This document shows positions 1,925 through 44,494 of a DNA stretch of 64,000 nucleotides, piece by piece. The first letter of the stretch is position 1. Every line of letters begins with the position of its first letter. Source of the DNA: a bacterium CG_4_10_14_0_2_um_filter_33_32 (lineage in GTDB: Bacteria; Patescibacteriota; CPR2_A; CG2-30-33-46); assembly GCA_002792735.1 (NCBI GenBank), contig PFOW01000055.1, forward strand, positions 273-64,272. Reading direction: 5' to 3'. The notes under the pieces are model-generated. The model did no database searches. It had not been told where the DNA came from and worked only from the letters and a program-made list of their open reading frames with translations. Both the position numbers and the translations under genes were made by a program.

Positions 1925-2570
1925 TATTGTTTACTCTTAGTTCTAATTCTTTATTAAGTACTTCCGAAATTAATATTGGATAATCTTTTGATTCATTCTC
2001 TTTAGTATAGCTTACAATTTTTGCCGATGCTTTATCTCTAATATTTATTAGCCAAGGATCATCAGCATTAATGATCACCAGACCATTTTTAGGTACCGCT
2101 TTAATTGCTTTTTCTATTTCTTTTGCTCTTATCTCTAGTTCATCGGACGATGCTTCGAAATCTAAACTTATATTCGTACAAATAAGGTATTTAGGTTGAA
2201 CAATAGTTAAAAGATAATCCATTTCACCCGGGAAAATTGCTCCCAGCTCCAAGATTAATATTTTAGGAAATTTTTTACTAAATAAAGCAATAGATATTCC
2301 TCTTGATAAGATTTTAAACCATGCCCAAAAGGAAGAATTGCCTGATGGTAGATATAGTACGGCAAGCGGAAGGCCAATTTCAGTATTATAACTTCTGGGA
2401 TTAGCTCGACAATCAAATTTTTTAGATAATTTTTCTTTGATTGCTTCCTTGGTTTCCGTTTTTCCTAAATTGCCAACTATACCAATAATCTGCGGCTTAT
2501 GTCTCCAGATGGTTATCCTTGTTAATATTCTTAGAATCCAAGTTACGATTTTCTTAAATACTTTTTTCAT
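1914..2570 (-). CDS. Mur ligase family protein (MurF-like N-terminal/middle region, short, lacks C-terminal domain)
   Basis: IIGIVGNLGKTETKEAI matches the Mur ligase P-loop (I-G-I-T-G-T-N-GKT-T). NTEIGLPLAVL and LVIINADDP resemble MurF blocks. The ORF ends at 218 aa with no C-terminal ligase domain in any frame. Confidence 0.4.
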   Translation of the reverse strand: MKKVFKKIVTWILRILTRITIWRHKPQIIGIVGNLGKTETKEAIKEKLSKKFDCRANPRSYNTEIGLPLAVLYLPSGNSSFWAWFKILSRGISIALFSKKFPKILILELGAIFPGEMDYLLTIVQPKYLICTNISLDFEASSDELEIRAKEIEKAIKAVPKNGLVIINADDPWLINIRDKASAKIVSYTKENESKDYPILISEVLNKELELRVNNNDL

Positions 2571-3723
2571 TGCTGCTCCTTAAAGTATTGTTCTATTCTA
2601 TCGAACGCCTCATTTATTTTTTCTTCAGTTACCCCAAAAGATATTCGTATATGATTTTCACCTATCGGACCAAAAGCGATTCCAGAAACTGTTGCTACCT
2701 TGGCTTTATACAACAAATCCAAAGCAATATCCCTTGAAGAACATTCCTTTAGGATTTTTGGAAAAACAAAATAAGCCGAATTTGGTCTTTTATATGAAAA
2801 ATAATTTGATAATTTATCAAGACGCCTTAAAATCAAGTCCCTTCTTTTTATAAATTCTCTTTTAAACCTCAAGACCTCTTCCTCTGCTAACTCAAAAGCA
2901 GCTATTGCAGCGTATTGAGAAACTACTGGAGCGCAAGTGACAATAGCATCATGAACTTTAATGATTTCGGCTATATTTTCTTTTGACGAATGAACAAACC
3001 CGATTCTCCAACCAGTCATAGCAAAAGCCTTAGAAAAACTAAAAATTCGAACAACCCTATCTTTAATCTCAGGATTCTGTGCTGGTGAATAATACTCTAT
3101 ATCTTCATATATAAAATCTTTATAAACTTCGTCGGTAATGATAAATAAATTAAACTCTTTAGCTAATTCTTCTAATTCTTGAACTTCTTGTTTGCTGTAA
3201 ATTGTGGATGTTGGATTGTTTGGATTACAAAAAAATATTGCTTTTGTTCTAGGAGTTATCTTTTCTTTAAAATAATTTGTATTTATACTCCAAGACTTTT
3301 CTTCATCCAAAGGAACAGATATTGGTATCCCTCCAGCAACTTTTATAGCCTCAGAATACGATACATAAGTTGGAGAAGGAATTAAAACTTCGTCATCTCT
3401 TTCTAATATAGTAAGGAGGGTGGCAGTTATTCCTTCGATAGCTCCAGCCGTTATAATTATTCAGTGCTAGGGCCATAAATCATATTATCTTTTTTAAGCT
3501 TCTCAGAGATTATCTCTCTAAGCTCTGGCAACCCCGGGCAAAGCGAGTATTTAGAAACAAGATTATTGTCTATAGCCCTCTTAGCAAAATTTTTGATCAC
3601 TTCCGGTGTTTCGAACGATGGTATGCCTTGAGCTAATGAAATAGCATTCGGCACTTTAGAAGCTAGGAGTTCTATTTCTTTGATAATTGATAGTCTGATG
3701 TTTTTTGTTTTACTAATATCCAT
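2567..3723 (-). pseudogene. class I/II (aspartate-family) aminotransferase interrupted by a single frameshift near 3450-3462
   Basis: N-terminal ORF 3457..3723 (…LCPGLPELREIISEKLKKDNMIYGPSTE*) and C-terminal ORF 2567..3310 (NPNNPTSTIY…FSFSKAFAMTGWRIGF…). A third-frame stretch ITAGAIEGITATLLTILERDDEVLIPSPTYVSYSEAIKVAGG is continuous with the C-terminal ORF. The N frame stops at TAA 3457-3459 and the C frame opens immediately after a TGA, i.e. a -1/+2 shift. Confidence 0.6.
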
Positions 3724-3780
3724 TAAGGATATTTTACTCTTTCTAACTGATTTTAAAAAGTGCCCGAAGGGCGCTCATCC

Positions 3781-16768: not shown

Positions 16769-16810
16769 TTTTCTTTGTATTTATCCTCCTAGAAAAATTT
16801 GTTATAAAAA

Positions 16811-26056: not shown

Positions 26057-29000
26057 TTATGGCGAATAAGTATATGTTAATGTAAGCTTTGCTCCCCAAA
26101 GAGATACATCACCACCATTTCCAACGATGTTAAGATGATAAGCATCTGTTGCCGGATATGTTCCACTATCATTTATAATCCCATAAAAATAAGAAGTAGC
26201 ATCATAATAAGTCTTAAGATAAGAATTGTTTCCAGTGCTTAGATTAAATACTTTTTGATTTGCACTATCTATATCAGTTGTTATTACTAAGGGGTTTGCA
26301 GTTCCTGAAACGCCAGTGATTTCGAAAAAGGCTGATTTAATGGTCGGGTTGCCTTCTGGTATATAGATATTAAATGCAAACCCGCCCGGTACGCCGTTCC
26401 CGCTTGTTCTAGTGTCTGTATCTTGTCCAATAAATAACTCTACTGTTTTTAACGGCCTAGTTGCCAAAGTTACAAAAGAACCATTTTCAGCACAATGTGT
26501 TGGACTATCAACGCTGTTACCACAAATTGCTTCATTTCCTGCCTTATCGATTGCTTTTACTCTGAAATAATATGTTGTTGAGGGTGACAAACCTGTTATA
26601 GTAACAGCTTGCGCCCCAACGCTATAACCACTAGTTGGGTTAGGCTGCAAGGTTCCAGGCCAACTACCTGTTGTATTGTATTCTACTTGTTTTGTAGCGT
26701 CTTCATTAACACTCCAATTAATAGTTGCGGAAACATCAGAAACACCGGATGTAGAAATACCGGTTATAGTAGGAGCTACTGTATCACAATAAAAGTCTTT
26801 GGAATTTACAGGATCACCGCCAAAATTAACCCATGCGCTATCGCCGTTTGCGTTTTTAACTCTAATCCGCCAATGATATTCATTACCATTGACTACCGTA
26901 GCCTGCACCCAGCCATCAACTGTAGTTTTTGGTGTAGGATAACTCACTGACGAACCTAGAATAAGACCATTACCATCAAAAGGAACTCCGTTAGGCTTAA
27001 GCTCAACTTCTGGCGTTAAATTTCCTGCTACCGCAGAATACATATCTGTGTGAAACCAAATATTGGTCTGGTTAATTCCAGATTCAGGTGATAAAGCTGC
27101 GCCACCTTGAGTTTTAGATTGAATAAGATCAGATGGATCAGCCGGAACATTGCTTAAAATAGTAAACCCATTTGATAAAGTACCAACACCCGCTTGGTTC
27201 TTAACATTTACACTATACTGACCTGTTGGCTTACCAGAAAGATTAACCACACATCTTATCTGTATTGCGCTATCCTCATATACTGTATCAGCATTGATCT
27301 GGGTGGGACCTGATAAATAACACTTTGGACTAGATAAATTTACAAAATTATCTCCTGTAATAGTTAGTTGCAAAGCTGTGTCATTTTGTGTTCCTTCTGC
27401 TGGATCTACTCCAGTTACGGTTGGGACAGATGCTGTTATAAAGAAACCAGATGTGCTACCGTCACCCCATTCTGCAACATAACCTTCTGGATTAGTAACA
27501 GTTAATTTCCAATAGCCTATTGTTTTATACACAATATTATAAGCAGCTGACATTGATGTTGCCGATGAAACAGTTATATCGCCATTTGCAGCTACAATAT
27601 CTGACTGACCGGTTTTCACTAACCTTGAATCTGTACTAGCTGTTTTTGGCTGGAAACCTTTACCTGTTATAGTCACCGTAACAGGATTGCTATTTTCAGC
27701 AGTATTAGGATTAATGCCTGTTATTTTTGGTTTAATATCAAAACGAGTATGTGACGCATCTAAGTTGCTTGTTTTACTGTTGGCTGTTACCTGAATTCTG
27801 GCAGCATAATTCACAGGACCACTAGAAGCACCGCTTGGTATATATACCCCTATCTGATTTTCTGCCCAACCATTAAAATCGCCATTTGGGGTTAATAATG
27901 GATTGCCATTAAAATCATTAAACTTAATATTATAAGAAGCAGACGATCTATTCCCAGCTCCTGGATCAGGCCTAAAATGATCACCATCAATAGCTACTAA
28001 GGTTCCGCCTCCAGCGAATCCGCCGGCAACCCCTGTTGTACATCCACTACCACTGCATGTAAATCCTGTTACTCTAGGTAAATAATCAAAAGAATAATTA
28101 TTACTGTTGACTGAATCACTATGCCTTCTTGCGATCAAAGAAACTGAATAACCTGGATCATTTGGCGCTGTTGTTTCAATGGTAGTTGTTAACCAACTTC
28201 CTATTGATGCAACAGTTGATCCAAACATAATTCTGCTGTTTGCTCCTTGTGTACCAAAATGATTACCGTTAATCCTTAAAGTATCCTCATATCTAGCGCC
28301 AGTTACTCCATTCTCAACAGTAATACCATAACCGGATGCTGTAACATCAACTGAAGTTATTTTAGGTAAACAAGTAAAAGACCAATTATTAGTATTTTTA
28401 TCTGGTGCAGGATTTGTTCTTGTAACAACAATGTTGCCAGCCTCATTACCGTCAGGTATAACAGGAACTGCAACGTTTGTAATTTGAGTTCCGCCGGATG
28501 CTCCATAAGATCCGTTTATAGTTGCCGATTCTCCATTTATTACTACACTTCCATTACTGCCAAAATGATCTCCTATTATAGTAATAATATCGCCTTGATA
28601 CGAAGAATTTTGAGTTACGGCATTATTCAAGCTTGTTATTCTTGGAAGTATTAATAGGGTTTTATCATTATTAGATGTTTTAGTATCATTCCTAGTCACA
28701 ACAATCGCGACTGTAATGCCTGAATCATTTGGTAAAGCAAATGATATTGAAGTGGCTCCCCATGTCAAACCGGCTGTAACATCAGTGGTGCCTACAGTAA
28801 CTTTTCCTCCACCTTGAACAGCGCCGAAATGATCACCGGAAATTGTTATAGAATCCCCTACACGTGCTTCTGAAGTTACGGATGTAACCTTAGGAAGAAT
28901 TATCAAAGTGTAATTATTATTACTTGTTTTTGCATCATCTCTAGTAACAACAACTGCCACAGTAATACCCGAATCATTAGGTAAATTTAAAGAAACAGAA

Positions 29001-32000
29001 GTAGTAGACCACGTTAGACCAGAGCTTACATCAGTTGTGCCTATTGTAACTTTACCTGCCCCCTGGGTGGCGCCAAAGTGATTTCCTGAAATTGTTATAG
29101 AATCTCCTACGCGCGCTTCTGAATTTACAGAAGTAATCTGTGGTAAAATCAAAATTGTTTTATCGGTATTTGATGTTTTAGTATCATCCCTGGTTACTTT
29201 AACAGCAACCGTATAACCTGCATCATTTTGGATTTTAACTTGGATAGAATTAGCTCCCCACGATACATAATCACCAGAAGGAACATCAGTTGTGCCAAAG
29301 GTAACTTTACCTGTACCACGAACGGCACCAAAGTGATTACCTGTTAATGTGATCGTATCACCTACCCTTCCTTCTGTTACACTTATACTGGAAAGTTGAG
29401 GAAGAATAAGTAACGTCACATCATTATTACTTGTTTTTAAATCACTATGTCTTGTTGCAACAACTGCTACAGTTGTTCCTGAATCATTGGGAACAGTGGC
29501 AGTAATAGAAGTTTCTGACCATGTACCAATAGTGCCGTCTGTAGAACCGAAAGTTATTTTACTACTAGCACCCTGATTGCCAAAATGATCTCCGGATACT
29601 GTTACAGAACCGCCTACACGAGATTCAGAAGTAACAGAAGTGACTCTTGGTAAAATTAACATTGTCTTATCATTATTAGAATCTTTTAAATCACTATGCC
29701 GTCTTGCAACAACAGCTACGGTATAACTAGGATCATTAGGAACAGTAGCAGTTATAGACCCTTCATTCCAAGTACCTATACCTGCAACAGTAGAGCCTAC
29801 CGTTACCTGGCTTGAAGCACCCTGAGTGCCAAAGTGGTCTCCGGTTAAAGTAATAGTACCTCCTACGCGAGCCTCAGCAGTAACACTGGCAATTCGAGGC
29901 AAAAGGAGAATACTCTTGTCAGTGTTGGATGATTTAGTATCATCTCTGGTTACTTTCACTGCTACCGTATAACCAGAGTCATTTTGAACTTTTACTTGTA
30001 TAGAAGAATCGCCCCAAGAAACATGATCTCCTGCAGGCGCATTAGTTGAACCAAAAGTTACATAACCTGCACCACGAACTGCGCCAAAATGATTTCCAGA
30101 AATAGTTATAGTATCACCAACTCTAGCTTCTGTTACGGATATGCCGGTAACTTGAGGCATAATACTTACGGTTTTATCATTATTAGAAGTTTTTAAGTCT
30201 CCATCTCTTGTTGTTACAACAGCTATTGTTCCGCCTGAATCATTGGGAACTTTTACCTGAAGAGAATTATCTCCCCAAGATACATAATCGCCTCCTGCAA
30301 CATCAGTTGTCCCCATAGTTACTTTTCCATTAGTTCCTTTAGCTGCGCCAAAGTGATTACCTGCAATAGTTACAGTATCACCAACTAGAACATCAGTTGG
30401 AACAATAGACGTTATCTGGGGAAGTATAAGTATCGTTTTATCTGTATTAGATATCTTTGTATCATCCCTGGTTACTTTAATAGCTAGATTGTAAGAAGAA
30501 TCATTTTGAATTTTAACTTGAATAGTTCCGGCATTCCAAGATACATAATCGCCGGATGGAGCAATTATAGAACCAAAAGTAACCGTACCTGCGCCCCGCA
30601 CTGCGCCAAAGTGATTTCCGTTAACTGTAATAGTATCACCCACCCTTCCTTCAGTCTGAGTAATAGAAGTGATTTGGGGCAAAATAGTAAATGTTATATT
30701 GTTATTTGAGGTATCACCACCATTTCTAGTTACTTGAACAGCAACTGTTGTAGCAGCATCATTCGGTACTGTAACTGTTATTGAAGTATCTCCCCATAAG
30801 GTTACTGGTGCTGAAGTTGAGCCGAGCATAACGCTTCCTGTTCCTTGGACTCCCCCAAAATGATCTCCCTGAATAGTAAGCAAATCACCCACCCTGCCTT
30901 CTGTAGGCGATAGTGAAGTGGTAACTCTTGGCAAAATCTTAAAAGCATAACTGTTTGAAGTTTTGGAATCAGAAGACCTTGTTACAACAAAATTTAAAGA
31001 CTGTCCAGAACTTATGGTAGCCGGAATAGTAAAGTTTGAGATCGAAGTATCAGCATAAGTAACCCCCGTAGATGAATTCTGTCCATCTAGTGTTATTGCC
31101 CCGGCAGGACCAAAGTGATCGCCGTTTATAACAACAACATCTCCAATTCTAGCACCTGTGCCTGTTACCGGATTAGTTGAAGTAATCCTTGGCAATATCT
31201 TAAACGTGATACCGTTTGATGTTTTAGTGCCATAAGTCGCATTAGTGGTTATAGTTACTGACCCATCTATTGTTCCAGTAAGAGGTATTGCAACTCCTGT
31301 TATTGAAGTATCGCCCCATGTTCCAGTGGCTGACGCGCCGTTTATGGAGATTGTTCCGGCAGATACACCTAAATGATTACCGTTAATTGTAATAGTATCA
31401 CCCACTCTTGCTTCTGTTACTGACAGAGAAGTGATCTGCGGCAAAACAGTAAAACCATAAACCGGCGAATTTTGAACTGCCCCAACCGTAATAGACATCC
31501 CGCCGGTATTTATAGTGGCATCAGAAGGAACCGATACTCCAGAGATTGAAGTGTTTGTCCAAGTAACACCAGGGGTAGATTCAGTAATTGCAGTTCCGTT
31601 ATTATTAATGTAAAGGGTTCCTGCTGTTCCAAAACCATATCCGGAAATTGTTATAGTTGCTCCCTGAAGAGCCTCTGTTGGTGTTGGCGCAATGATTTTA
31701 GGCCGCACAGTAAATGAACTTGCATAAGTAATTGCTGTTGCTCCAAATATAGCGTCTGTAATTGTTAAATTAACATTCCAGACTCCCCCGTAAGCAGCTG
31801 TTGGACCAGGCGTTGCATTATTTAAATTAAATGAACCGCCAGTAATGCTATTTTTATTAGATAAAGAAAAACTAGATCCCGTAACTGTTTGAGTGCCTAA
31901 AGTTAAGGTTACAGAAGAAACAGATTGGAAACCTGATCCGGTTAATGAAATACCTGAATATGTTGACCCTGAATCTCCGCTTGTAGTTGAAATTGCCGTA

Positions 32001-33271
32001 ACTTTTGGCAAAATTTGGAAGTTTTGGTTATTATTGGAAGTTTTGGTTATGGGAGCTGTTATTGAGACGATAACTGTTCCAGAAATTGTATCCGGCACTG
32101 TAAAGGTAACTGAAGTTTCAGTGCTGCCTCCTCCAATTGTTGCTGATACTCCATTAATTGTCATAGTCCTTGTTGTGCCTAAATGATCTCCTGTGATTGT
32201 GGCTGTAACATCCCCCACTGTTTTACCAGCACCAACCCCTGTTATATTTGGATAAACATAAAAAGTCAGAAGCGAGGTATCTGCTACACCTCCAGCCGTT
32301 ACTAAAAGACCATTATTAGTTACACCACCATAAGACATACAAGCAGCCGGTATAGTAAAAACAATTTGTGTATCACTCCAAGAACTTATATCTGCATCCG
32401 GTATTTGATACCCACCAGAACCTCCGATTTTTATATTATCAGTAACCGTTGATCGATTTCCTGCCCCAGGATCAGCACCAAAACCAGTTCCTGTAATTGT
32501 TATTTGCTGTAAGGAACGACCTCCGTCGGTTATTGTCCCATCAGTATTATTTGTAAAAGATGTTGCATCTGGATTAGCAACTGCCAAAGTATAATCAATA
32601 GCAAAAACAAGGGTATCCATTCTTACTTCGGTTGATGCAGAATTGTTATTCCCAGAATTAACATCAGAGCGCATCCTTATAGTTACGTTTATATTAGAAG
32701 CCTGATAAGCAGAACTTACTGTTTTTGCTCCATCAACATCTCTAGTAACCCAAGAACTTGAAGTCGGATCAAATTCTGTTTCTAAGTCAACTAAGCCATC
32801 AAACACACCTGTTGTATCGACACCATCATAAATTTTCAGGCCTACTGATTGAGTTGATGCATGTGTTTCTTGAAAAAGCTTAACATCAAAGCTTCCATTA
32901 ACATTATTTACAGTAGCACCTGCGGGTACTCCCATATCTTCCCATGTAAGAGTCTTTTTAAAATAACCTAAATTCTTTTTATTCCTAGCAGTAACTTTAG
33001 CAAAAAGAGAACCAGAAGGATTACCGTCTGTTCCTAAATAGCCTTGTGTACAAGTACCCGTACATGATTCATCAACATAAGTAAAACCTTCGATGCTAGT
33101 AGCAAAGTTAACCGTATAATTTTGAACTGCTGCACGAACAGGTGTTACTGATTGTCTAAACAAAAATGGTACAAAAAAAGAACCTAAAAATCCAAAAATA
33201 ATTAATAAAATCGATATTTTGGTAAAATATCTTAAAAAATGCTTTTTATTTTTCTTTATAAACAAAACCAT
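26057..33271 (-). CDS. giant (2404 aa) secreted/cell-surface protein with ~19 tandem IPT/TIG-like Ig-fold repeats, an FN3 domain and a distinct C-terminal domain
   Basis: N-terminal signal-anchor. The repeated ~85-aa unit is ILPQITSI…EGRVGDTITxNGNHFGAxRGxGxVTFG…VKVxNDxxxxVAVKVTRDDTKxSN. It has FN3-like INWSVNE…YYFRVKAIDKAGNE. It is a single uninterrupted ORF. Confidence 0.85.
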   Translation of the reverse strand: MVLFIKKNKKHFLRYFTKISILLIIFGFLGSFFVPFLFRQSVTPVRAAVQNYTVNFATSIEGFTYVDESCTGTCTQGYLGTDGNPSGSLFAKVTARNKKNLGYFKKTLTWEDMGVPAGATVNNVNGSFDVKLFQETHASTQSVGLKIYDGVDTTGVFDGLVDLETEFDPTSSSWVTRDVDGAKTVSSAYQASNINVTIRMRSDVNSGNNNSASTEVRMDTLVFAIDYTLAVANPDATSFTNNTDGTITDGGRSLQQITITGTGFGADPGAGNRSTVTDNIKIGGSGGYQIPDADISSWSDTQIVFTIPAACMSYGGVTNNGLLVTAGGVADTSLLTFYVYPNITGVGAGKTVGDVTATITGDHLGTTRTMTINGVSATIGGGSTETSVTFTVPDTISGTVIVSITAPITKTSNNNQNFQILPKVTAISTTSGDSGSTYSGISLTGSGFQSVSSVTLTLGTQTVTGSSFSLSNKNSITGGSFNLNNATPGPTAAYGGVWNVNLTITDAIFGATAITYASSFTVRPKIIAPTPTEALQGATITISGYGFGTAGTLYINNNGTAITESTPGVTWTNTSISGVSVPSDATINTGGMSITVGAVQNSPVYGFTVLPQITSLSVTEARVGDTITINGNHLGVSAGTISINGASATGTWGDTSITGVAIPLTGTIDGSVTITTNATYGTKTSNGITFKILPRITSTNPVTGTGARIGDVVVINGDHFGPAGAITLDGQNSSTGVTYADTSISNFTIPATISSGQSLNFVVTRSSDSKTSNSYAFKILPRVTTSLSPTEGRVGDLLTIQGDHFGGVQGTGSVMLGSTSAPVTLWGDTSITVTVPNDAATTVAVQVTRNGGDTSNNNITFTILPQITSITQTEGRVGDTITVNGNHFGAVRGAGTVTFGSIIAPSGDYVSWNAGTIQVKIQNDSSYNLAIKVTRDDTKISNTDKTILILPQITSIVPTDVLVGDTVTIAGNHFGAAKGTNGKVTMGTTDVAGGDYVSWGDNSLQVKVPNDSGGTIAVVTTRDGDLKTSNNDKTVSIMPQVTGISVTEARVGDTITISGNHFGAVRGAGYVTFGSTNAPAGDHVSWGDSSIQVKVQNDSGYTVAVKVTRDDTKSSNTDKSILLLPRIASVTAEARVGGTITLTGDHFGTQGASSQVTVGSTVAGIGTWNEGSITATVPNDPSYTVAVVARRHSDLKDSNNDKTMLILPRVTSVTSESRVGGSVTVSGDHFGNQGASSKITFGSTDGTIGTWSETSITATVPNDSGTTVAVVATRHSDLKTSNNDVTLLILPQLSSISVTEGRVGDTITLTGNHFGAVRGTGKVTFGTTDVPSGDYVSWGANSIQVKIQNDAGYTVAVKVTRDDTKTSNTDKTILILPQITSVNSEARVGDSITISGNHFGATQGAGKVTIGTTDVSSGLTWSTTSVSLNLPNDSGITVAVVVTRDDAKTSNNNYTLIILPKVTSVTSEARVGDSITISGDHFGAVQGGGKVTVGTTDVTAGLTWGATSISFALPNDSGITVAIVVTRNDTKTSNNDKTLLILPRITSLNNAVTQNSSYQGDIITIIGDHFGSNGSVVINGESATINGSYGASGGTQITNVAVPVIPDGNEAGNIVVTRTNPAPDKNTNNWSFTCLPKITSVDVTASGYGITVENGVTGARYEDTLRINGNHFGTQGANSRIMFGSTVASIGSWLTTTIETTAPNDPGYSVSLIARRHSDSVNSNNYSFDYLPRVTGFTCSGSGCTTGVAGGFAGGGTLVAIDGDHFRPDPGAGNRSSASYNIKFNDFNGNPLLTPNGDFNGWAENQIGVYIPSGASSGPVNYAARIQVTANSKTSNLDASHTRFDIKPKITGINPNTAENSNPVTVTITGKGFQPKTASTDSRLVKTGQSDIVAANGDITVSSATSMSAAYNIVYKTIGYWKLTVTNPEGYVAEWGDGSTSGFFITASVPTVTGVDPAEGTQNDTALQLTITGDNFVNLSSPKCYLSGPTQINADTVYEDSAIQIRCVVNLSGKPTGQYSVNVKNQAGVGTLSNGFTILSNVPADPSDLIQSKTQGGAALSPESGINQTNIWFHTDMYSAVAGNLTPEVELKPNGVPFDGNGLILGSSVSYPTPKTTVDGWVQATVVNGNEYHWRIRVKNANGDSAWVNFGGDPVNSKDFYCDTVAPTITGISTSGVSDVSATINWSVNEDATKQVEYNTTGSWPGTLQPNPTSGYSVGAQAVTITGLSPSTTYYFRVKAIDKAGNEAICGNSVDSPTHCAENGSFVTLATRPLKTVELFIGQDTDTRTSGNGVPGGFAFNIYIPEGNPTIKSAFFEITGVSGTANPLVITTDIDSANQKVFNLSTGNNSYLKTYYDATSYFYGIINDSGTYPATDAYHLNIVGNGGDVSLWGAKLTLTYTYSP

Positions 33272-34700: not shown

Positions 34701-34737
34701 GATTGACGAAACACGCTACTTGCACTATTCTAAGAAT

Positions 34738-35406
34738 ATGCCGCGTAGAAAAACCATCTTTATAAATAACGGGATTTATCATGTTCTAAATAAAGGCGTA
34801 AATAGCGCACCTATATTTTTGAATAATAATGACCATCAAAGATTCTTAGATATAGTCAATCTATGTAGATATAATCCCCAAATAAAATTTTCACTATATA
34901 ATCGTCTACATAAACAAGAAAAAAACGAATTTTTGGATAATTTAAAAAAGAAACACGAACCTATTATAGATATTTTAGCTTTTAGCCTAATGCCTAATCA
35001 CTTTCATCTCTTATTAAAACAACTCCAAGACAAAGGTATACAGATTTTTTTAGGAAACCTTCAAAATAGCTATGCCAAGTATTTTAATATAAAAAATAAA
35101 AGAACAGGACCTCTTTTCCAATCTGCTTTTAAATCAATAGATATAGAAACAGACGAACAACTTATCCATGTCTCAAGATATATACACTTAAACCCTGTAT
35201 CCTCTTACATAATAGATATTGAAAACTTAGAAAATTACAAATGGTCTTCTTTCGGCAATTATTTAAATGATAAAAAATATGAGTTCGTAGCCTCTGCAAC
35301 AATTCTAGGATACTTCAAGACGCAGAGTAAATACAGAAAATTTGTCTTTGACCAAGCTGATTACCAAAGAGAACTAGAAGAAATAAAACACTTAGCAATA
35401 GAATAA
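34738..35406 (+). CDS. IS200/IS605-family Y1 (HuH) transposase, REP-associated (RAYT-like)
   Basis: MPRRKTIFINNGIYHVLNKGVN…, HuH motif MPNHFHLLL and catalytic-Tyr region SRYIHLNPV. The ORF track extends it to a TTG at 34720, but the ATG at 34738 is more likely. Confidence 0.7.
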   Translation: MPRRKTIFINNGIYHVLNKGVNSAPIFLNNNDHQRFLDIVNLCRYNPQIKFSLYNRLHKQEKNEFLDNLKKKHEPIIDILAFSLMPNHFHLLLKQLQDKGIQIFLGNLQNSYAKYFNIKNKRTGPLFQSAFKSIDIETDEQLIHVSRYIHLNPVSSYIIDIENLENYKWSSFGNYLNDKKYEFVASATILGYFKTQSKYRKFVFDQADYQRELEEIKHLAIE

Positions 35407-40870: not shown

Positions 40871-41803
40871 CTATTTTAATAATTTATTATCCCTAAAAAC
40901 ATTATACATTCTTTTCCAATCTTCTAAGAAGAGATCCTGTGGTCTTTTATTCGAATCAACCCCTGATTTAATGATTAATTTTGCTGTTTCTTCTTTATTC
41001 AGCAAAAAGCCAGCAGCTAAGTTATTAACCAATTTTTTTCTCGGGCTGGAAAATCCTATTTTTATAAGTCTGAAAAATAATTTTTCAGCTATTCTTTTTT
41101 CTGGGGTCTGTTTACTGCCTACCCTAAGTAAAGTCGAAGGGTTTACTGTTATCTTGATAATGGCTGAATCTACTTTTGGTTTTGGCCAAAATGAATCTTT
41201 TGGCACAAAAGATATAATTTCTGGTTTTGCAAAAAATTGAACAGAAACAGCTAAAATGTTCATATTCGGGGGTTTGGCAATAATTCTTTCTGCCACTTCC
41301 TTTTGCACCATTATAATTAAGCTAGAAGGACGGTTCTTGACTTCTAAGAATTTTCTAATTACAGGGGAAGTAATATAGTAAGGAATATTAGAAACAACTT
41401 GATAATGACCCTGTATCTCTTTGTCTATATCAAAACTTAGAATATCTTTATTTTGGATAATCAGATTATCAAAATCCTTTGTTGTCTTTTTAAGAATGTT
41501 TAATAGAGCAGCATCTTTTTCAACAGCAATAACCTTATCGGCTTTCTTCAAAAGCTCTATAGTCAAAATGCCTATACCAGACCCGATTTCTAAAACCTTA
41601 TCGTCCTTACTTATATTTGAAGCATTGATGATTTCATTAAGTACATGCCTTGATACTAAAAAATGCTGACCAAGCTTCTTGCTTAACCAAAGCTTATTAT
41701 TCGAAAGCAGATTTTTTATTGTTGGAATATTAGTAAGATCCACAACTCCATAGTAAACAGTTAGCAGTAAGCAGTAAACAGGAAAACTAGAAAGAGCTGT
41801 CAT
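40871..41803 (-). CDS. rsmA: 16S rRNA (adenine1518/1519-N6)-dimethyltransferase RsmA/KsgA
   Basis: LGQHFLVSRHVLNEIINASN…VLEIGSGIGILTIELL and NIPYYITSPVI. The N-terminal extension suggests the true start may be internal. Confidence 0.85.
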   Translation of the reverse strand: MTALSSFPVYCLLLTVYYGVVDLTNIPTIKNLLSNNKLWLSKKLGQHFLVSRHVLNEIINASNISKDDKVLEIGSGIGILTIELLKKADKVIAVEKDAALLNILKKTTKDFDNLIIQNKDILSFDIDKEIQGHYQVVSNIPYYITSPVIRKFLEVKNRPSSLIIMVQKEVAERIIAKPPNMNILAVSVQFFAKPEIISFVPKDSFWPKPKVDSAIIKITVNPSTLLRVGSKQTPEKRIAEKLFFRLIKIGFSSPRKKLVNNLAAGFLLNKEETAKLIIKSGVDSNKRPQDLFLEDWKRMYNVFRDNKLLK

Positions 41804-41826: not shown

Positions 41827-42954
41827 CTATTTTCTACCGCAAACCGGCCAAGCGCCATATCCTTGTATAGAAATTTTCCAAGCTGTTGTATAAATCTGAG
41901 CTTTTGCATCATAAATACTTGCACCGGCATAACCTGCGCCGGCAGATGCGCCTGCCCAAGTAGAGGGAAGGTATTGAAATAAACCATAGAATCTTCCACC
42001 GCCTCCAACAGAATTTGGATTGCCTCCACTTTCACAAGTCATCATTCTTTGCATTTTACCCGCATCAACTCCGTATTTTAATGCGGCATCATTTATCCAT
42101 TCACCAAATGCGCCATCGGCATAAGTGAATTTCGGTTTTCTGCCCTTAATGACAATTTGTGATACAGGTTCCTTTATAATTTCTGTTGAAAGTATTTCTT
42201 TGCTTTTTTCAGTTCCGTTTTCAATTACTTTCTTAAAAGTGATTTTCTTTTTACCAACCTCGCCTCTTCTCTCTATCTTTGATTCGCCCTCTAAAAAATT
42301 AGCGTCATCTTTATACTGTATAGCAAAAGGAATTTCGTAAGTTTCCGAAGATTCATCTTTTGAAATTCTTATAATATTTATCTCTAAACCTTCTGTAAGC
42401 GGCGTATTAAGAGCCGGCTCAACTCTATCAAACTCTCCTAAGGCAATATTTTCCGAATAAATTAAATCCGAAACTTTTTTAAGTCTTGTATGAATCTCTC
42501 TTAATTTACCGTCTACTTGAATATTTATCGTATTAGCTCTATTTATATATATTTTTAACCCAGGCACAACATCATCCAAAGGATCAGCGATTGAAACCTC
42601 ATCATTAGCGTATAAATTAATAGATAGATCTTTTAAAATTTCAAAAACCGATAAGTAAGCACTTCTGCCAATTATTATTTTATCGCCATCAATAATAGTC
42701 ACTGGTCTTGCTTTATAGATAAAAACCTCGGTTGTACCTTCATTAAGATTAGTATCTAGGCCAGGATCTACTAAATCATTCTTTTCAAAAGAAATACCCT
42801 GAGATTCCAATGCCTCTTTTAAAGTATTTTTGGTGGTAGTAAATTTGGCTTGATCGTTTTCTGTAGTTAAACTTATGACTTTGACTGGCTCTAAAGAACC
42901 AGATGCAAATGCAGTAATATTCGGTAGAATATATGCATTTGATGCAAAAGACAA
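41827..42954 (-). CDS. RpfB-like secreted protein: DUF348 - G5 - resuscitation-promoting-factor (lysozyme-like transglycosylase) domain; N-terminus probably extends upstream to a non-canonical start (to ~43065)
   Basis: C-terminal MTCESGGNPNSVGGGGRFYGLFQYLPSTWAG…AWPVCGRK (Rpf domain) with DUF348/G5-like middle. From the TTG start the protein lacks a signal peptide. The in-frame upstream sequence encodes …KKVRNLKNRISSKIKAVILVFSILSFASNA, an open frame back to ATA 43065-43063 preceded by GGAGG + 5 nt. Confidence 0.75.
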   Translation of the reverse strand: MSFASNAYILPNITAFASGSLEPVKVISLTTENDQAKFTTTKNTLKEALESQGISFEKNDLVDPGLDTNLNEGTTEVFIYKARPVTIIDGDKIIIGRSAYLSVFEILKDLSINLYANDEVSIADPLDDVVPGLKIYINRANTINIQVDGKLREIHTRLKKVSDLIYSENIALGEFDRVEPALNTPLTEGLEINIIRISKDESSETYEIPFAIQYKDDANFLEGESKIERRGEVGKKKITFKKVIENGTEKSKEILSTEIIKEPVSQIVIKGRKPKFTYADGAFGEWINDAALKYGVDAGKMQRMMTCESGGNPNSVGGGGRFYGLFQYLPSTWAGASAGAGYAGASIYDAKAQIYTTAWKISIQGYGAWPVCGRK

Positions 42955-43187
42955 AATGCTAAAAACTAATATAACTGCCTTTATTTTTGAAGATATTCTG
43001 TTTTTTAAATTTCTTACTTTTTTGCCAAAAGAATTAACTTTTGGCCCTAACTGGTGCGTTTCTATAAAAACCTCCGGGTTAAATCGATGTAGAATTTTTG
43101 ATTATCAAGACTTTTGTTTTCGCCCTTTGGTTTTGTTTTTGTTTTTAAAATTTATGTTTTTTGTTTTATTTGAAATTATAGAAAAGC

Positions 43188-43215
43188 ATTATACAGACCT
43201 CCAAAACGTTGTCAA
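43188..43215 (-). promoter_or_regulatory. near-consensus sigma70-type promoter upstream of the Rpf-like gene
   Basis: Minus sense TTGACA-acgttttggaggtctg-TATAAT with a 16-nt spacer. It is followed by a >110-nt A/CA-rich leader. Confidence 0.5.
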
Positions 43216-43271: not shown

Positions 43272-43305
43272 AAAAAACCGAGCTGAAATTAAAAATCGCC
43301 GGGAT
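43272..43305 (-). terminator. intrinsic terminator downstream of the CBS-domain gene
   Basis: Minus-sense RNA UCGCUGG-auaauc-CCGGCGA forms a 7-bp stem with one G·U, followed by UUUUUAAUUU. Confidence 0.5.
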
Positions 43306-43358
43306 TATCCAGCGACATCGATTTATAAGACTTAATTTTTTCTTTTTGAATATTTATC

Positions 43359-43841
43359 TTAAGTATTATTAGGTATTTTTAATTTCATTTTGAGATATTC
43401 ATCAATATCATTAATACTTATTGTTCCCATAAATCTCCGTTCTTTTAATACTGGCAACTTTGACAGGCTATTTTCATTCATGATATCAAATACTTTAGTC
43501 ATCGAGTCTTGCGGATCTACTGAGGATTTTATAAGATCTATCTTGGTCATAACATCTTTCACTTCTAAATCCTTAATGCGCTCCTCATTTATTCCGCTTA
43601 GCTGATTTGAGTTTATACTGCCTATAATATTATTACCGTTATCAATAACCAAGAAATTACTTTTGTGATGCTGCAAAAACCTTAAAAACAAATCAGATAT
43701 CTTTAAATGCAAAGGTATAAAATCTTCTTCATGATTCATTAAGTCCCTTACTTTTATTTTTGAAAGCAACTCTCTAAAAATCATTTGCCTATAGCTTATG
43801 CCGGCAGCCTGATAGAAAAAAATCCAACTAACACAAGCCAA
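43359..43841 (-). CDS. CBS-domain pair protein (probably the C-terminal half of the upstream M50 protease gene)
   Basis: Two CBS motifs (VRDLMNHEEDFIPL…, VKDVMTKIDLI…). It overlaps the M50 ORF by 46 nt in another frame. Confidence 0.6.
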   Translation of the reverse strand: MACVSWIFFYQAAGISYRQMIFRELLSKIKVRDLMNHEEDFIPLHLKISDLFLRFLQHHKSNFLVIDNGNNIIGSINSNQLSGINEERIKDLEVKDVMTKIDLIKSSVDPQDSMTKVFDIMNENSLSKLPVLKERRFMGTISINDIDEYLKMKLKIPNNT

Positions 43842-44494
43842 ATACCACCGAGGCTACGGATTATAAACGTTTCCAATATTCCGCCCACAATAAGTAAAGA
43901 AGCTATAAATTTACCTCCGATAGAAGCATAATAAGTTGCCTTTTTCAATGAATGATTAATAGCCCAAATAACGGATCTTAAAACTCTTCCTCCGTCTAAA
44001 GGAAAGCCAGGCAATAGATTAAAAATTGCTAAAGTAAAATTCAGAAAAGCCAATGTTTGAAATATAGGCATAAGTTCTAGAATAGCAGTATATGTTATAA
44101 AAAAATAATAAAGCAAATAGAATGTAACTGCTAAAATTAGACTAGAGAGGGGACCAGCGATAGCCATCTTAAACTCAATACCTGCTGTCTTTGGTTCTTC
44201 GGAAATATGTGCGACACCTCCAAAAATAAAAAAAGAAATTTTCTTAACATCTAAACCGTTTCTTTTTGCAATAACGGAATGGCTTAATTCATGGATTAAT
44301 GCGGAGGCAAAAAATAAAACAGATGTAAAAATACCTAGAATAATATTTGTATTATTGCTAAATTCACTGTACACAGACGGAAAATAGCCAAAAGACAAAG
44401 ACCATGTAACGATAAAAAAGATTATAAACCAAGAATAATCAACCGTAATCTCAATACCTAAAATCTTACCTAAAGTAAAACCTCCACGTGACAT
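43796..44494 (-). CDS. site-2 protease family (M50) zinc metalloprotease
   Basis: HExxH as ALIHELSHSVIAKRNG, multiple TM helices and the LDGG motif (GFPLDGGRVL). Confidence 0.75.
   Translation of the reverse strand: MSRGGFTLGKILGIEITVDYSWFIIFFIVTWSLSFGYFPSVYSEFSNNTNIILGIFTSVLFFASALIHELSHSVIAKRNGLDVKKISFFIFGGVAHISEEPKTAGIEFKMAIAGPLSSLILAVTFYLLYYFFITYTAILELMPIFQTLAFLNFTLAIFNLLPGFPLDGGRVLRSVIWAINHSLKKATYYASIGGKFIASLLIVGGILETFIIRSLGGIWLVLVGFFSIRLPA

Follow-up and report, generated by a model that had tools for sequence, protein, structure and literature searches.

The rpf gene and its start codon

The 64,000-nucleotide stretch of contig PFOW01000055.1 analyzed here (the window, meaning the whole stretch) carries on its minus strand a gene for an RpfB/YabE-like protein, referred to as rpf, that is annotated from a TTG codon but very probably begins further upstream, at an AUA codon behind a perfect Shine-Dalgarno (SD) sequence. 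The window has a GC content of 32% and its genes lie almost all on the minus strand; close relatives of its sequence are titled Candidatus Saccharibacteria or Patescibacteria. The features at the head of rpf are:

41827..43065, minus strand: coding sequence (CDS) of the RpfB/YabE-like protein, 412 amino acids plus a TAG stop at 41829-41827, opened at ATA
42934..43065, minus strand: 44-codon signal peptide or anchor, M/I-ETHQLGPKVNSFGKKVRNLKNRISSKIK, then AVILVFSILSF, then ASNA↓Y (arrow, predicted cleavage)
42952..42954, minus strand: TTG chosen by gene callers, a Leu codon internal to the hydrophobic core, without SD
43063..43065, minus strand: ATA start codon (AUA is near-cognate for the initiator tRNA)
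43066..43070, minus strand: spacer TTTTT (T4 to T7 or TGTTT in orthologs)
43071..43075, minus strand: SD sequence GGAGG, the same in 12 loci with an AUH start (AUA, AUU or AUC)
43102..43107, minus strand: tandem in-frame stops TGA and TAA, which close the frame upstream of the ATA

The protein has the domain order of RpfB/YabE-like proteins, with DUF348 repeats, then G5, then a transglycosylase domain of the Rpf type (CESGG...GLFQY...GAWPVCG). A profile search returned PF03990 (DUF348) in two stretches (E=6e-18), PF07501 (G5; E=1.8e-18) and, at the C-terminus, PF06737 (Rpf-type transglycosylase), which exceeds its family cutoff (E=9e-9). The nearest solved structure is that of RpfB (5e27, E=6e-15), with RpfC and RpfE also matched. 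The catalytic CESGG motif is invariant in at least 19 aligned sequences, C-E-S being without any variation. By these matches the protein belongs to the RpfB/YabE-type muralytic family and its activity is predicted to be that of the family.

The ATA at 43065 and the TTG at 42954 are in one frame, 111 nt or 37 codons apart. The initial annotation held that the protein read from the TTG has no signal peptide, that the open frame upstream of it encodes one, and that this frame contains no canonical start codon before its upstream stop, only an ATA (43065-43063) placed behind GGAGG-TTTTT. Each of these points stands, with the coordinates exact to the base. There is no ATG, GTG or TTG from the stops at 43107-43102 down to the TTG at 42954, and in a scan for start sites ATA 43065 was the only start-type codon within the extension to be preceded by an SD sequence. 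The 37 codons that follow the ATA are free of stops, which has a probability of 0.02 on shuffling. An assembly artefact can be discounted for the ATA, since two other assemblies (Logan SRR5487657 and ENA ERZ22298166) are identical in this codon and the region around it.

Evaluated with a hydrophobicity and charge heuristic, only the product extended to the ATA carries an export signal. It starts with an N-region of 29 amino acids with a net charge of +7, continues with the core AVILVFSILSF (mean Kyte-Doolittle hydrophobicity 2.8) and ends in ASNA↓Y, which conforms to the -3/-1 cleavage rule; the PL(V/I)SNA motif is kept in orthologs. The product read from the TTG, of 375 amino acids, opens with MSFASNAY and lacks the N-region and the H-region, and with them the hydrophobic core. 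Proteins of the RpfB family are extracytoplasmic, which supports the need for an export signal, and it is highly likely that the first 44 residues of the 412-residue pre-protein form a Sec-type signal peptide or anchor. As for the initiating residue at the AUA, we infer that it is formylmethionine.

Conservation of the start region among orthologs

The DNA of 12 orthologous loci with 37-64% identity was compared with the window. Most of the close orthologs came from Logan assemblies, and a scan of metagenomes contributed few. Including the window, GGAGG-N4-7-ATH (H being A, C or T) was found in frame in 12 of 13 loci, and the homologous start codon was ATT in seven, ATA in four, and ATC and ATG in one each. 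The start regions read:

Window: GGAGG-T5-ATA
L163: GGAGG-T6-ATA
L164: GGAGG-T7-ATC
L165: GGAGG-T4-ATA
L003: GGAGG-T6-ATA
L166, L167, L168, L169, L004 and L005: GGAGG-T5-ATT
L007 (37% identity): GGAGG-TGTTT-ATT
L170: ATG, GGAGG absent

The ATH is in frame with the open reading frame (ORF) at every locus, and the frame of the GGAGG shifts with spacers of 4, 5, 6, and 7 nt. Since the spacer length varies by single nucleotides, shifting the GGAGG out of frame, the GGAGG is non-coding. In-frame stops are found 1-18 codons upstream of the ATH (1-12 codons except in L163), and in L004 such a stop overlaps the SD sequence itself (cTAGGAGG). The stops and the frame shifts of the spacer together therefore place the boundary between non-coding and coding sequence at the ATH. 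The possibility that the GGAGG is coding and read as "PEVF," as in P0010 (MEVFIKTH) and P0015 (KEVFIKPH), was considered and is ruled out by the same spacer indels and stops; the "M" of P0010 is a TTG that overlaps the SD sequence.

Downstream of this boundary, the peptide that directly follows the ATH is kept as (E/K)(T/P)(H/Y)..L.(L/P)K, with wobble changes in codons 3-4, and in each of 10 orthologs the ATH is followed by 28-41 stop-free codons (P=0.02-0.17 each, shuffling). The sequence 3' of the ATH thus has the character expected of coding DNA. In 10 of the 12 orthologs there is no canonical codon from which the hydrophobic core could be retained, and the canonical codons that do occur upstream either overlap the SD sequence (TTG in L166, GTG in L007) or fall in the A-rich leader (L168). 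The codon equivalent to TTG 42954 is Leu, Val, Met or Pro in the orthologs, none of which clearly starts there, and they keep the extension open, with a basic and then hydrophobic peptide encoded. It follows that the proposal of ATA 43065 as the start of rpf, already part of the initial annotation, gains from the orthologs, which keep GGAGG-N4-7-AT(A/T/C) at the same place.

The annotated start, with a fortuitous upstream frame and a protein devoid of signal peptide, is to be judged against these data. In its favor, the TTG is the first canonical codon and the choice of gene callers in all assemblies. It has neither an SD sequence nor a hydrophobic core, its equivalent varies among orthologs as described, the frame upstream is open and conserved in all orthologs at the probabilities given above, and an Rpf domain in the cytoplasm would find no substrate. 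We consider a start at the TTG most improbable. Somewhat less remote, but still unlikely, is initiation at another near-cognate codon within the extension: the stretch from 43065 to 42954 holds several ATH codons, and a signal peptide would remain even with a shorter N-region. None of them is preceded by an SD sequence or conserved in position, and it is the peptide directly after the conserved ATH that is kept with changes in wobble position.

A T-run behind an SD-like element also resembles the stimulators of programmed frameshifting, and an upstream ORF in another frame could in principle be joined to rpf in the manner of prfB or dnaX. In the window and six orthologs, no canonical start reads into the T-run in either alternative frame, and the run itself has a variable length of 4 to 7, with TGTTT in its place in L007, so that frameshifting is the least probable of the explanations considered. 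The reading to be preferred remains initiation at the AUA, with TTG 42954 as an internal Leu codon; this we hold with good but not complete confidence, and we regard the feature as conserved.

The single close ortholog with an ATG start is informative in this respect. Its ATG-TTA-AGC aligns with the ATT-TTA-AGC of L007 and of the high-GC orthologs described below, and in this alignment the ATG confirms the position of the start. It was further observed that this ATG-start ortholog (L170, 1073-1132) has no SD sequence and a leader that is A-rich only. This suggests a trade-off between the strength of the start codon and that of the SD sequence in the rpf family.

The consequences for annotation are direct. 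Standard gene callers accept only ATG, GTG, and TTG as starts. Among database proteins of 47-64% identity, 10 of 16 have their first residue within the hydrophobic core (MPLISNA.., MVLSIAPFAAN..). Such proteins are the output of gene callers where an upstream canonical codon is missing. The Rpf-like protein is hence either truncated within its signal peptide, as in these 10 of 16 close orthologs, or extended from spurious codons of the leader, and predictions of the secretome and cell envelope of Saccharibacteria then miss the enzyme.

Conservation in more distant lineages

Thirteen orthologs from high-GC (54-63%) Saccharimonadia, with 28-32% identity to the protein of the window, have an invariant ATT start (L013-L017, L019, L020, L023, L028, L031, L040, L078, and L094). 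The ATT is preceded by the block ..TAACG(C)GAGAGAC-N4 and followed by a Leu codon, which is TTA, TTG or CTG. The block is read in differing frames among the genomes and contains an in-frame TAA in L015 and L031. In L016 and L019 there is no canonical codon from the upstream stop to the membrane segment, and several of the high-GC orthologs have no canonical alternative start. A fuller version of the block, about 30 nt upstream of the ATT, reads AAACGTC(C/G)CTTGTATTAACG(C)GAGAGAC-N4-ATT, is strongly conserved and is unlike a classical GGAGG SD sequence; it may be a lineage-specific ribosome-binding or regulatory element. Three further orthologs (L006, L011, and L084) have GAGG-cag-GTG-ttt-ATT, which can be read as a GTG or an ATT start, and the more distant orthologs from Patescibacteria (L008, L009, L012, L018, and L087) begin at ATG.

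Taken over at least 25 species-level loci, the comparison indicates that the AUH start is an old, gene-specific trait across the Saccharimonadia-type lineage. It is difficult to reconcile this with a silent or decaying gene in the lineage, left without its start codon. A missing canonical start is commonly the mark of a pseudogene, and the window does contain other disrupted genes (an M50/CBS gene and an aminotransferase, see below). The 412-codon ORF of rpf is intact, however, all of its domains are conserved, including the CESGG motif, and orthologs with as little as about 28% identity keep the architecture of the start, a pattern that a decaying gene could not show. Decay is accordingly given very little weight.

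Conserved AUH starts are already known from infC and pcnB, and translation table 11 formally permits ATA, ATT, and ATC. What is new here is the gene family, the depth of the conservation (three interchangeable AUH codons, in orthologs to about 28% identity) and the systematic mis-annotation. For Saccharibacteria or Patescibacteria, a literature search of limited coverage found nothing on either AUH starts or Rpf.

A second ATA start in the window and the question of systematic AUA use

The initial annotation mentioned a second gene with GGAGG ahead of an ATA, and this was found as described:

16778..16790, minus strand: AGGAGG (16790-16785), ataa, ATA (16780-16778), at the head of a type IV prepilin-like gene (16780-16220)

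An in-frame TAA immediately precedes this ATA. Read from it, the prepilin leader is IQRKIGKKG↓FTLIELLVVIAIIGILAA, with FTLIEL after the cleavage site. The first canonical codon, TTG 16735, falls past the cleavage site, so the motif exists only with a start at ATA 16780. Homologs carry PF07963 and start with M..(K/R)GFTLIEL. Among the loci used for comparison (L171-L175), a strain of 99% identity (JGI 3300008086) and an ortholog of 67% identity both have ATG at precisely this position. Three further assemblies carry the identical ATA allele, and 81 blocks of the collection index the shortened call. As judged from these alleles, the prepilin ATA is a recent ATG-to-ATA transition in an intact ORF and is not a conserved feature. 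Its persistence suggests that AUA behind a perfect SD sequence still works, and the ATG/ATA polymorphism implies that such a start is at least tolerated in natural populations of the organism.

From the two genes it had been concluded that AUA is used systematically as a start codon. That (A)GGAGG-N4-5-ATA precedes a required N-terminus in two genes of a single 64-kb window, and that the prepilin allele persists in many samples with its ORF intact, would be in line with systematic use or with a reassignment of AUA like that in mitochondrial or Mollicutes-like codes. When the codon behind the best SD sequence was scanned in all 57 long ORFs of the window, however, a non-canonical start was needed in only two (rpf and the prepilin gene), and the other 55 offer ATG, GTG or TTG. 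At the five sites where GGAGG occurs at the head of an ORF, the codon is ATG twice, TTG once, and ATA twice. Moreover, ATT and ATC serve in rpf orthologs just as readily as ATA does, and the sister strain has ATG in the prepilin gene. Reassignment of AUA to Met is ruled out because the internal ATA codons of rpf align to Ile or Val in 200 of 252 cells (Ile 125, Val 75) and to Met in 1. A third apparent case, an ORF at 2567-3460 with GGAGG-N7-ATA, was rejected, as it is the 3' half of a frameshifted aminotransferase.

The claim of systematic AUA use could therefore not be maintained and is very unlikely. The start of rpf is old and gene-specific and that of the prepilin gene is a recent allele, and for this reason the two are not instances of one genome-wide rule.

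Promoter and leader of rpf

The following features surround the gene:

43295..43316, minus strand: terminator-like hairpin and T-run, which ends the upstream CBS-domain gene
43188..43215, minus strand: promoter TTGACA (43215-43210), 16-nt spacer, TATAAT (43193-43188), score 12/12
43076..43181, minus strand: A-rich 5' leader of about 116 nt, the transcription start site (TSS) being placed about 7 nt past the -10 box
40871..41803, minus strand: ksgA/rsmA (RrnaAD), 23 nt downstream of rpf on the same strand

The promoter and the A-rich leader had been noted before, and both are borne out. At 87-199 nt ahead of the start, all 11 close orthologs (at least 48% identity) have TTGACA-N14-TnTGTATAAT; in L007, which is more distant, the promoter reads TTGACA-N16-TAAAAT. 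An equivalent hairpin lies ahead of the promoter in orthologs. As the hairpin closes the CBS-domain gene, the rpf promoter drives its own transcript. Downstream, RrnaAD follows rpf in seven orthologous loci, an order seen in L164, L165, and L167-L170 and known from Actinobacteria (PMC6009663).

The leaders of the orthologs L163-L169 and L003-L005 consist of a hairpin at the predicted TSS, an A/C-rich tract, and AAAAACCUC. The last is complementary to GAGGUUUUU, which comprises the SD sequence and the U spacer, and minimum free energy (MFE) folds pair the two in 9 of 11 leaders. An inner GGG/CCC pairing was seen to accompany the AAAAACCUC/GAGGUUUUU pairing in the leaders; the motif is degenerate in the window, where AAAACC (43134-43129) and GGG (43125-43123) could pair with GGUUUU and CCC (43078-43076) near the SD sequence. 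As a lead only, the pure U-run of the spacer would find an explanation in such pairing. The pairing probability of the SD sequence was no higher than in shuffled A-rich leaders, and in these a complementarity of 8-9 out of 9 was frequent (P 0.06-0.83). A helix sequestering the SD sequence was for that reason dropped as a finding after the shuffle controls and retained as a lead.

In a comparison with Rfam, the only match in the window at the gathering score was a tRNA-Glu, and the leader gave chance-level matches on the wrong strand (E at least 0.3). A known riboswitch or leader family was rejected for the rpf leader in view of the absence of an Rfam match.

Other features of the window

Upstream of rpf, the M50 peptidase-CBS gene is split near position 43823 (minus strand) into ORFs 43796-44494 and 43359-43841 by a frameshift in a T-run. 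The run is T7 in the window and in L001; in L002 it is T8 and the gene is fused (378 amino acids), as it also is in L165. Either the homopolymer was misassembled or the split is a real, phase-like variant. The class I/II aminotransferase gene at 2567-3774 (minus strand) is likewise split, into ORFs 3457-3774 and 2567-3460, with a frameshift near 3457-3460; the GGAGG-N7-ATA at 3334-3320 within it is an internal Ile codon and not a start. A giant ORF of 2404 amino acids (26057-33271, minus strand) occupies the sole part of the window with raised GC (0.36-0.40 versus about 0.32). Among the few genes on the plus strand, the one at 34720-35406 has, by eye, a HFHLLL-type motif that recalls REP-associated or IS200-like tyrosine transposases. 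Contigs near-identical to the window are found in many ENA and Logan samples.

A possible role for the AUH start

The initiator tRNA reads AUA, AUU, and AUC with a third-position mismatch. We propose as the most likely mechanism that the consensus promoter, the long A-rich leader, and the maximal SD sequence recruit 30S subunits efficiently and that the near-cognate start, through its mismatch with the initiator anticodon, makes initiation inefficient and exposes it to proofreading by IF3. This would hold down the output of a peptidoglycan hydrolase that is potentially self-lytic, perhaps along with that of the downstream ksgA, and would make it sensitive to the state of initiation (IF3, ppGpp, nutrient status) in the way of the AUU codons of infC and pcnB. 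We regard this rationale, a throttle that responds to IF3, as about evenly balanced between right and wrong. In E. coli, AUA and AUU can serve as starts in a good initiation region, and all non-AUG mRNAs tested (those with GUG, UUG, AUU or AUA) had a yield that depended on context and was selectively lowered by nutrient limitation and ppGpp (PMC5499595). In the IF3 studies, as far as they are relayed in that paper, IF3 discriminates against AUU, AUC, and AUA (PMC5499595).

One could go further and speculate that the AUH codon together with the leader, in which AAAAACCUC would oppose the SD sequence and U spacer, heads an rpf-ksgA operon as a translational sensor throughout the lineage. AUH initiation would then rise with falling initiation fidelity, for instance at a low ratio of IF3 to ribosomes, or on 30S subunits that are not yet methylated by KsgA, and fall under ppGpp or starvation. 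We think this rather doubtful, although if true the sensor would couple wall remodelling, the resumption of growth, and the supply of KsgA to the state of the ribosome pool in episymbionts with reduced genomes.

Several points weigh against the interpretation as a whole. The assignment of the start codon is drawn entirely from sequence comparison. A downstream TTG in L003 and in L005 could give a workable signal peptide. ATA, ATT, and ATC are the three Ile codons, so that their interchange taken by itself would fit an internal Ile as well, and only the upstream stops and the frame shifts argue against reading the ATH in this way. The leader of the window pairs in only 6 of 9 positions (AAAACC; P=1.0), and the SD-sequestering helix is not significant. 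Finally, the model of a throttle acting through IF3 is an analogy.

If the AUH start of rpf is accepted, the gene is a deeply conserved addition to a very short list (infC and pcnB) and belongs to a different functional class. It would offer a natural system for asking why dangerous enzymes keep weak start codons. Rpf-type enzymes govern the exit from dormancy in Actinobacteria, and control at the level of the start codon in ultra-small episymbionts could link wall remodelling to translational status.

Comparison with known systems

With fourU and ROSE thermometers and translational riboswitches the leaders of rpf orthologs share a sequence complementary to the SD region, AAAAACCUC. They differ from these in that the loop is variable, a conserved aptamer is absent, and the pairing is not significant. 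Bacillus subtilis YabE (DUF348-G5-3D, encoded upstream of rnmV-ksgA) resembles the rpf product in its N-terminal anchor, its DUF348 and G5 domains, and the adjacency of its gene to ksgA, but ends in a 3D/RlpA-like domain rather than an Rpf-type transglycosylase; to our knowledge no non-canonical start has been reported for it.

An AUU start in E. coli pcnB is said to have been described by Binns and Masters in 2002. Like rpf, infC has a phylogenetically conserved AUU, AUC or AUA start behind a functional SD sequence, which is inefficient and sensitive to IF3 (PMC5499595), a sensitivity that for rpf is by analogy. In contrast to infC and pcnB, rpf encodes a secreted muralytic enzyme and not a factor of translation or RNA metabolism. 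There is also no autoregulatory logic of the infC kind, as the product of rpf is not IF3, and all three AUH codons occur among the rpf orthologs.

The rpfB gene of Mycobacterium tuberculosis (Rv1009, in the operon rpfB-ksgA-ispE) has the same DUF348-G5-Rpf architecture and synteny with ksgA as rpf (PMC6009663). It too has a long 5' leader and a sub-optimal, mis-annotated start, its leader being regulatory (a 5' UTR, or untranslated region, switch) and its SD sequence experimentally essential (PMC6009663). The mycobacterial start is a canonical TTG, whereas that of rpf in the window would be AUA, and the mycobacterial leader is a transcription-attenuating switch limited to pathogenic mycobacteria, whereas no terminator or Rfam element was found in the leader of the window. 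The mycobacterial case indicates that the expression of an Rpf is tightly limited elsewhere as well, and it is counted here as support for a throttle at the start of rpf.

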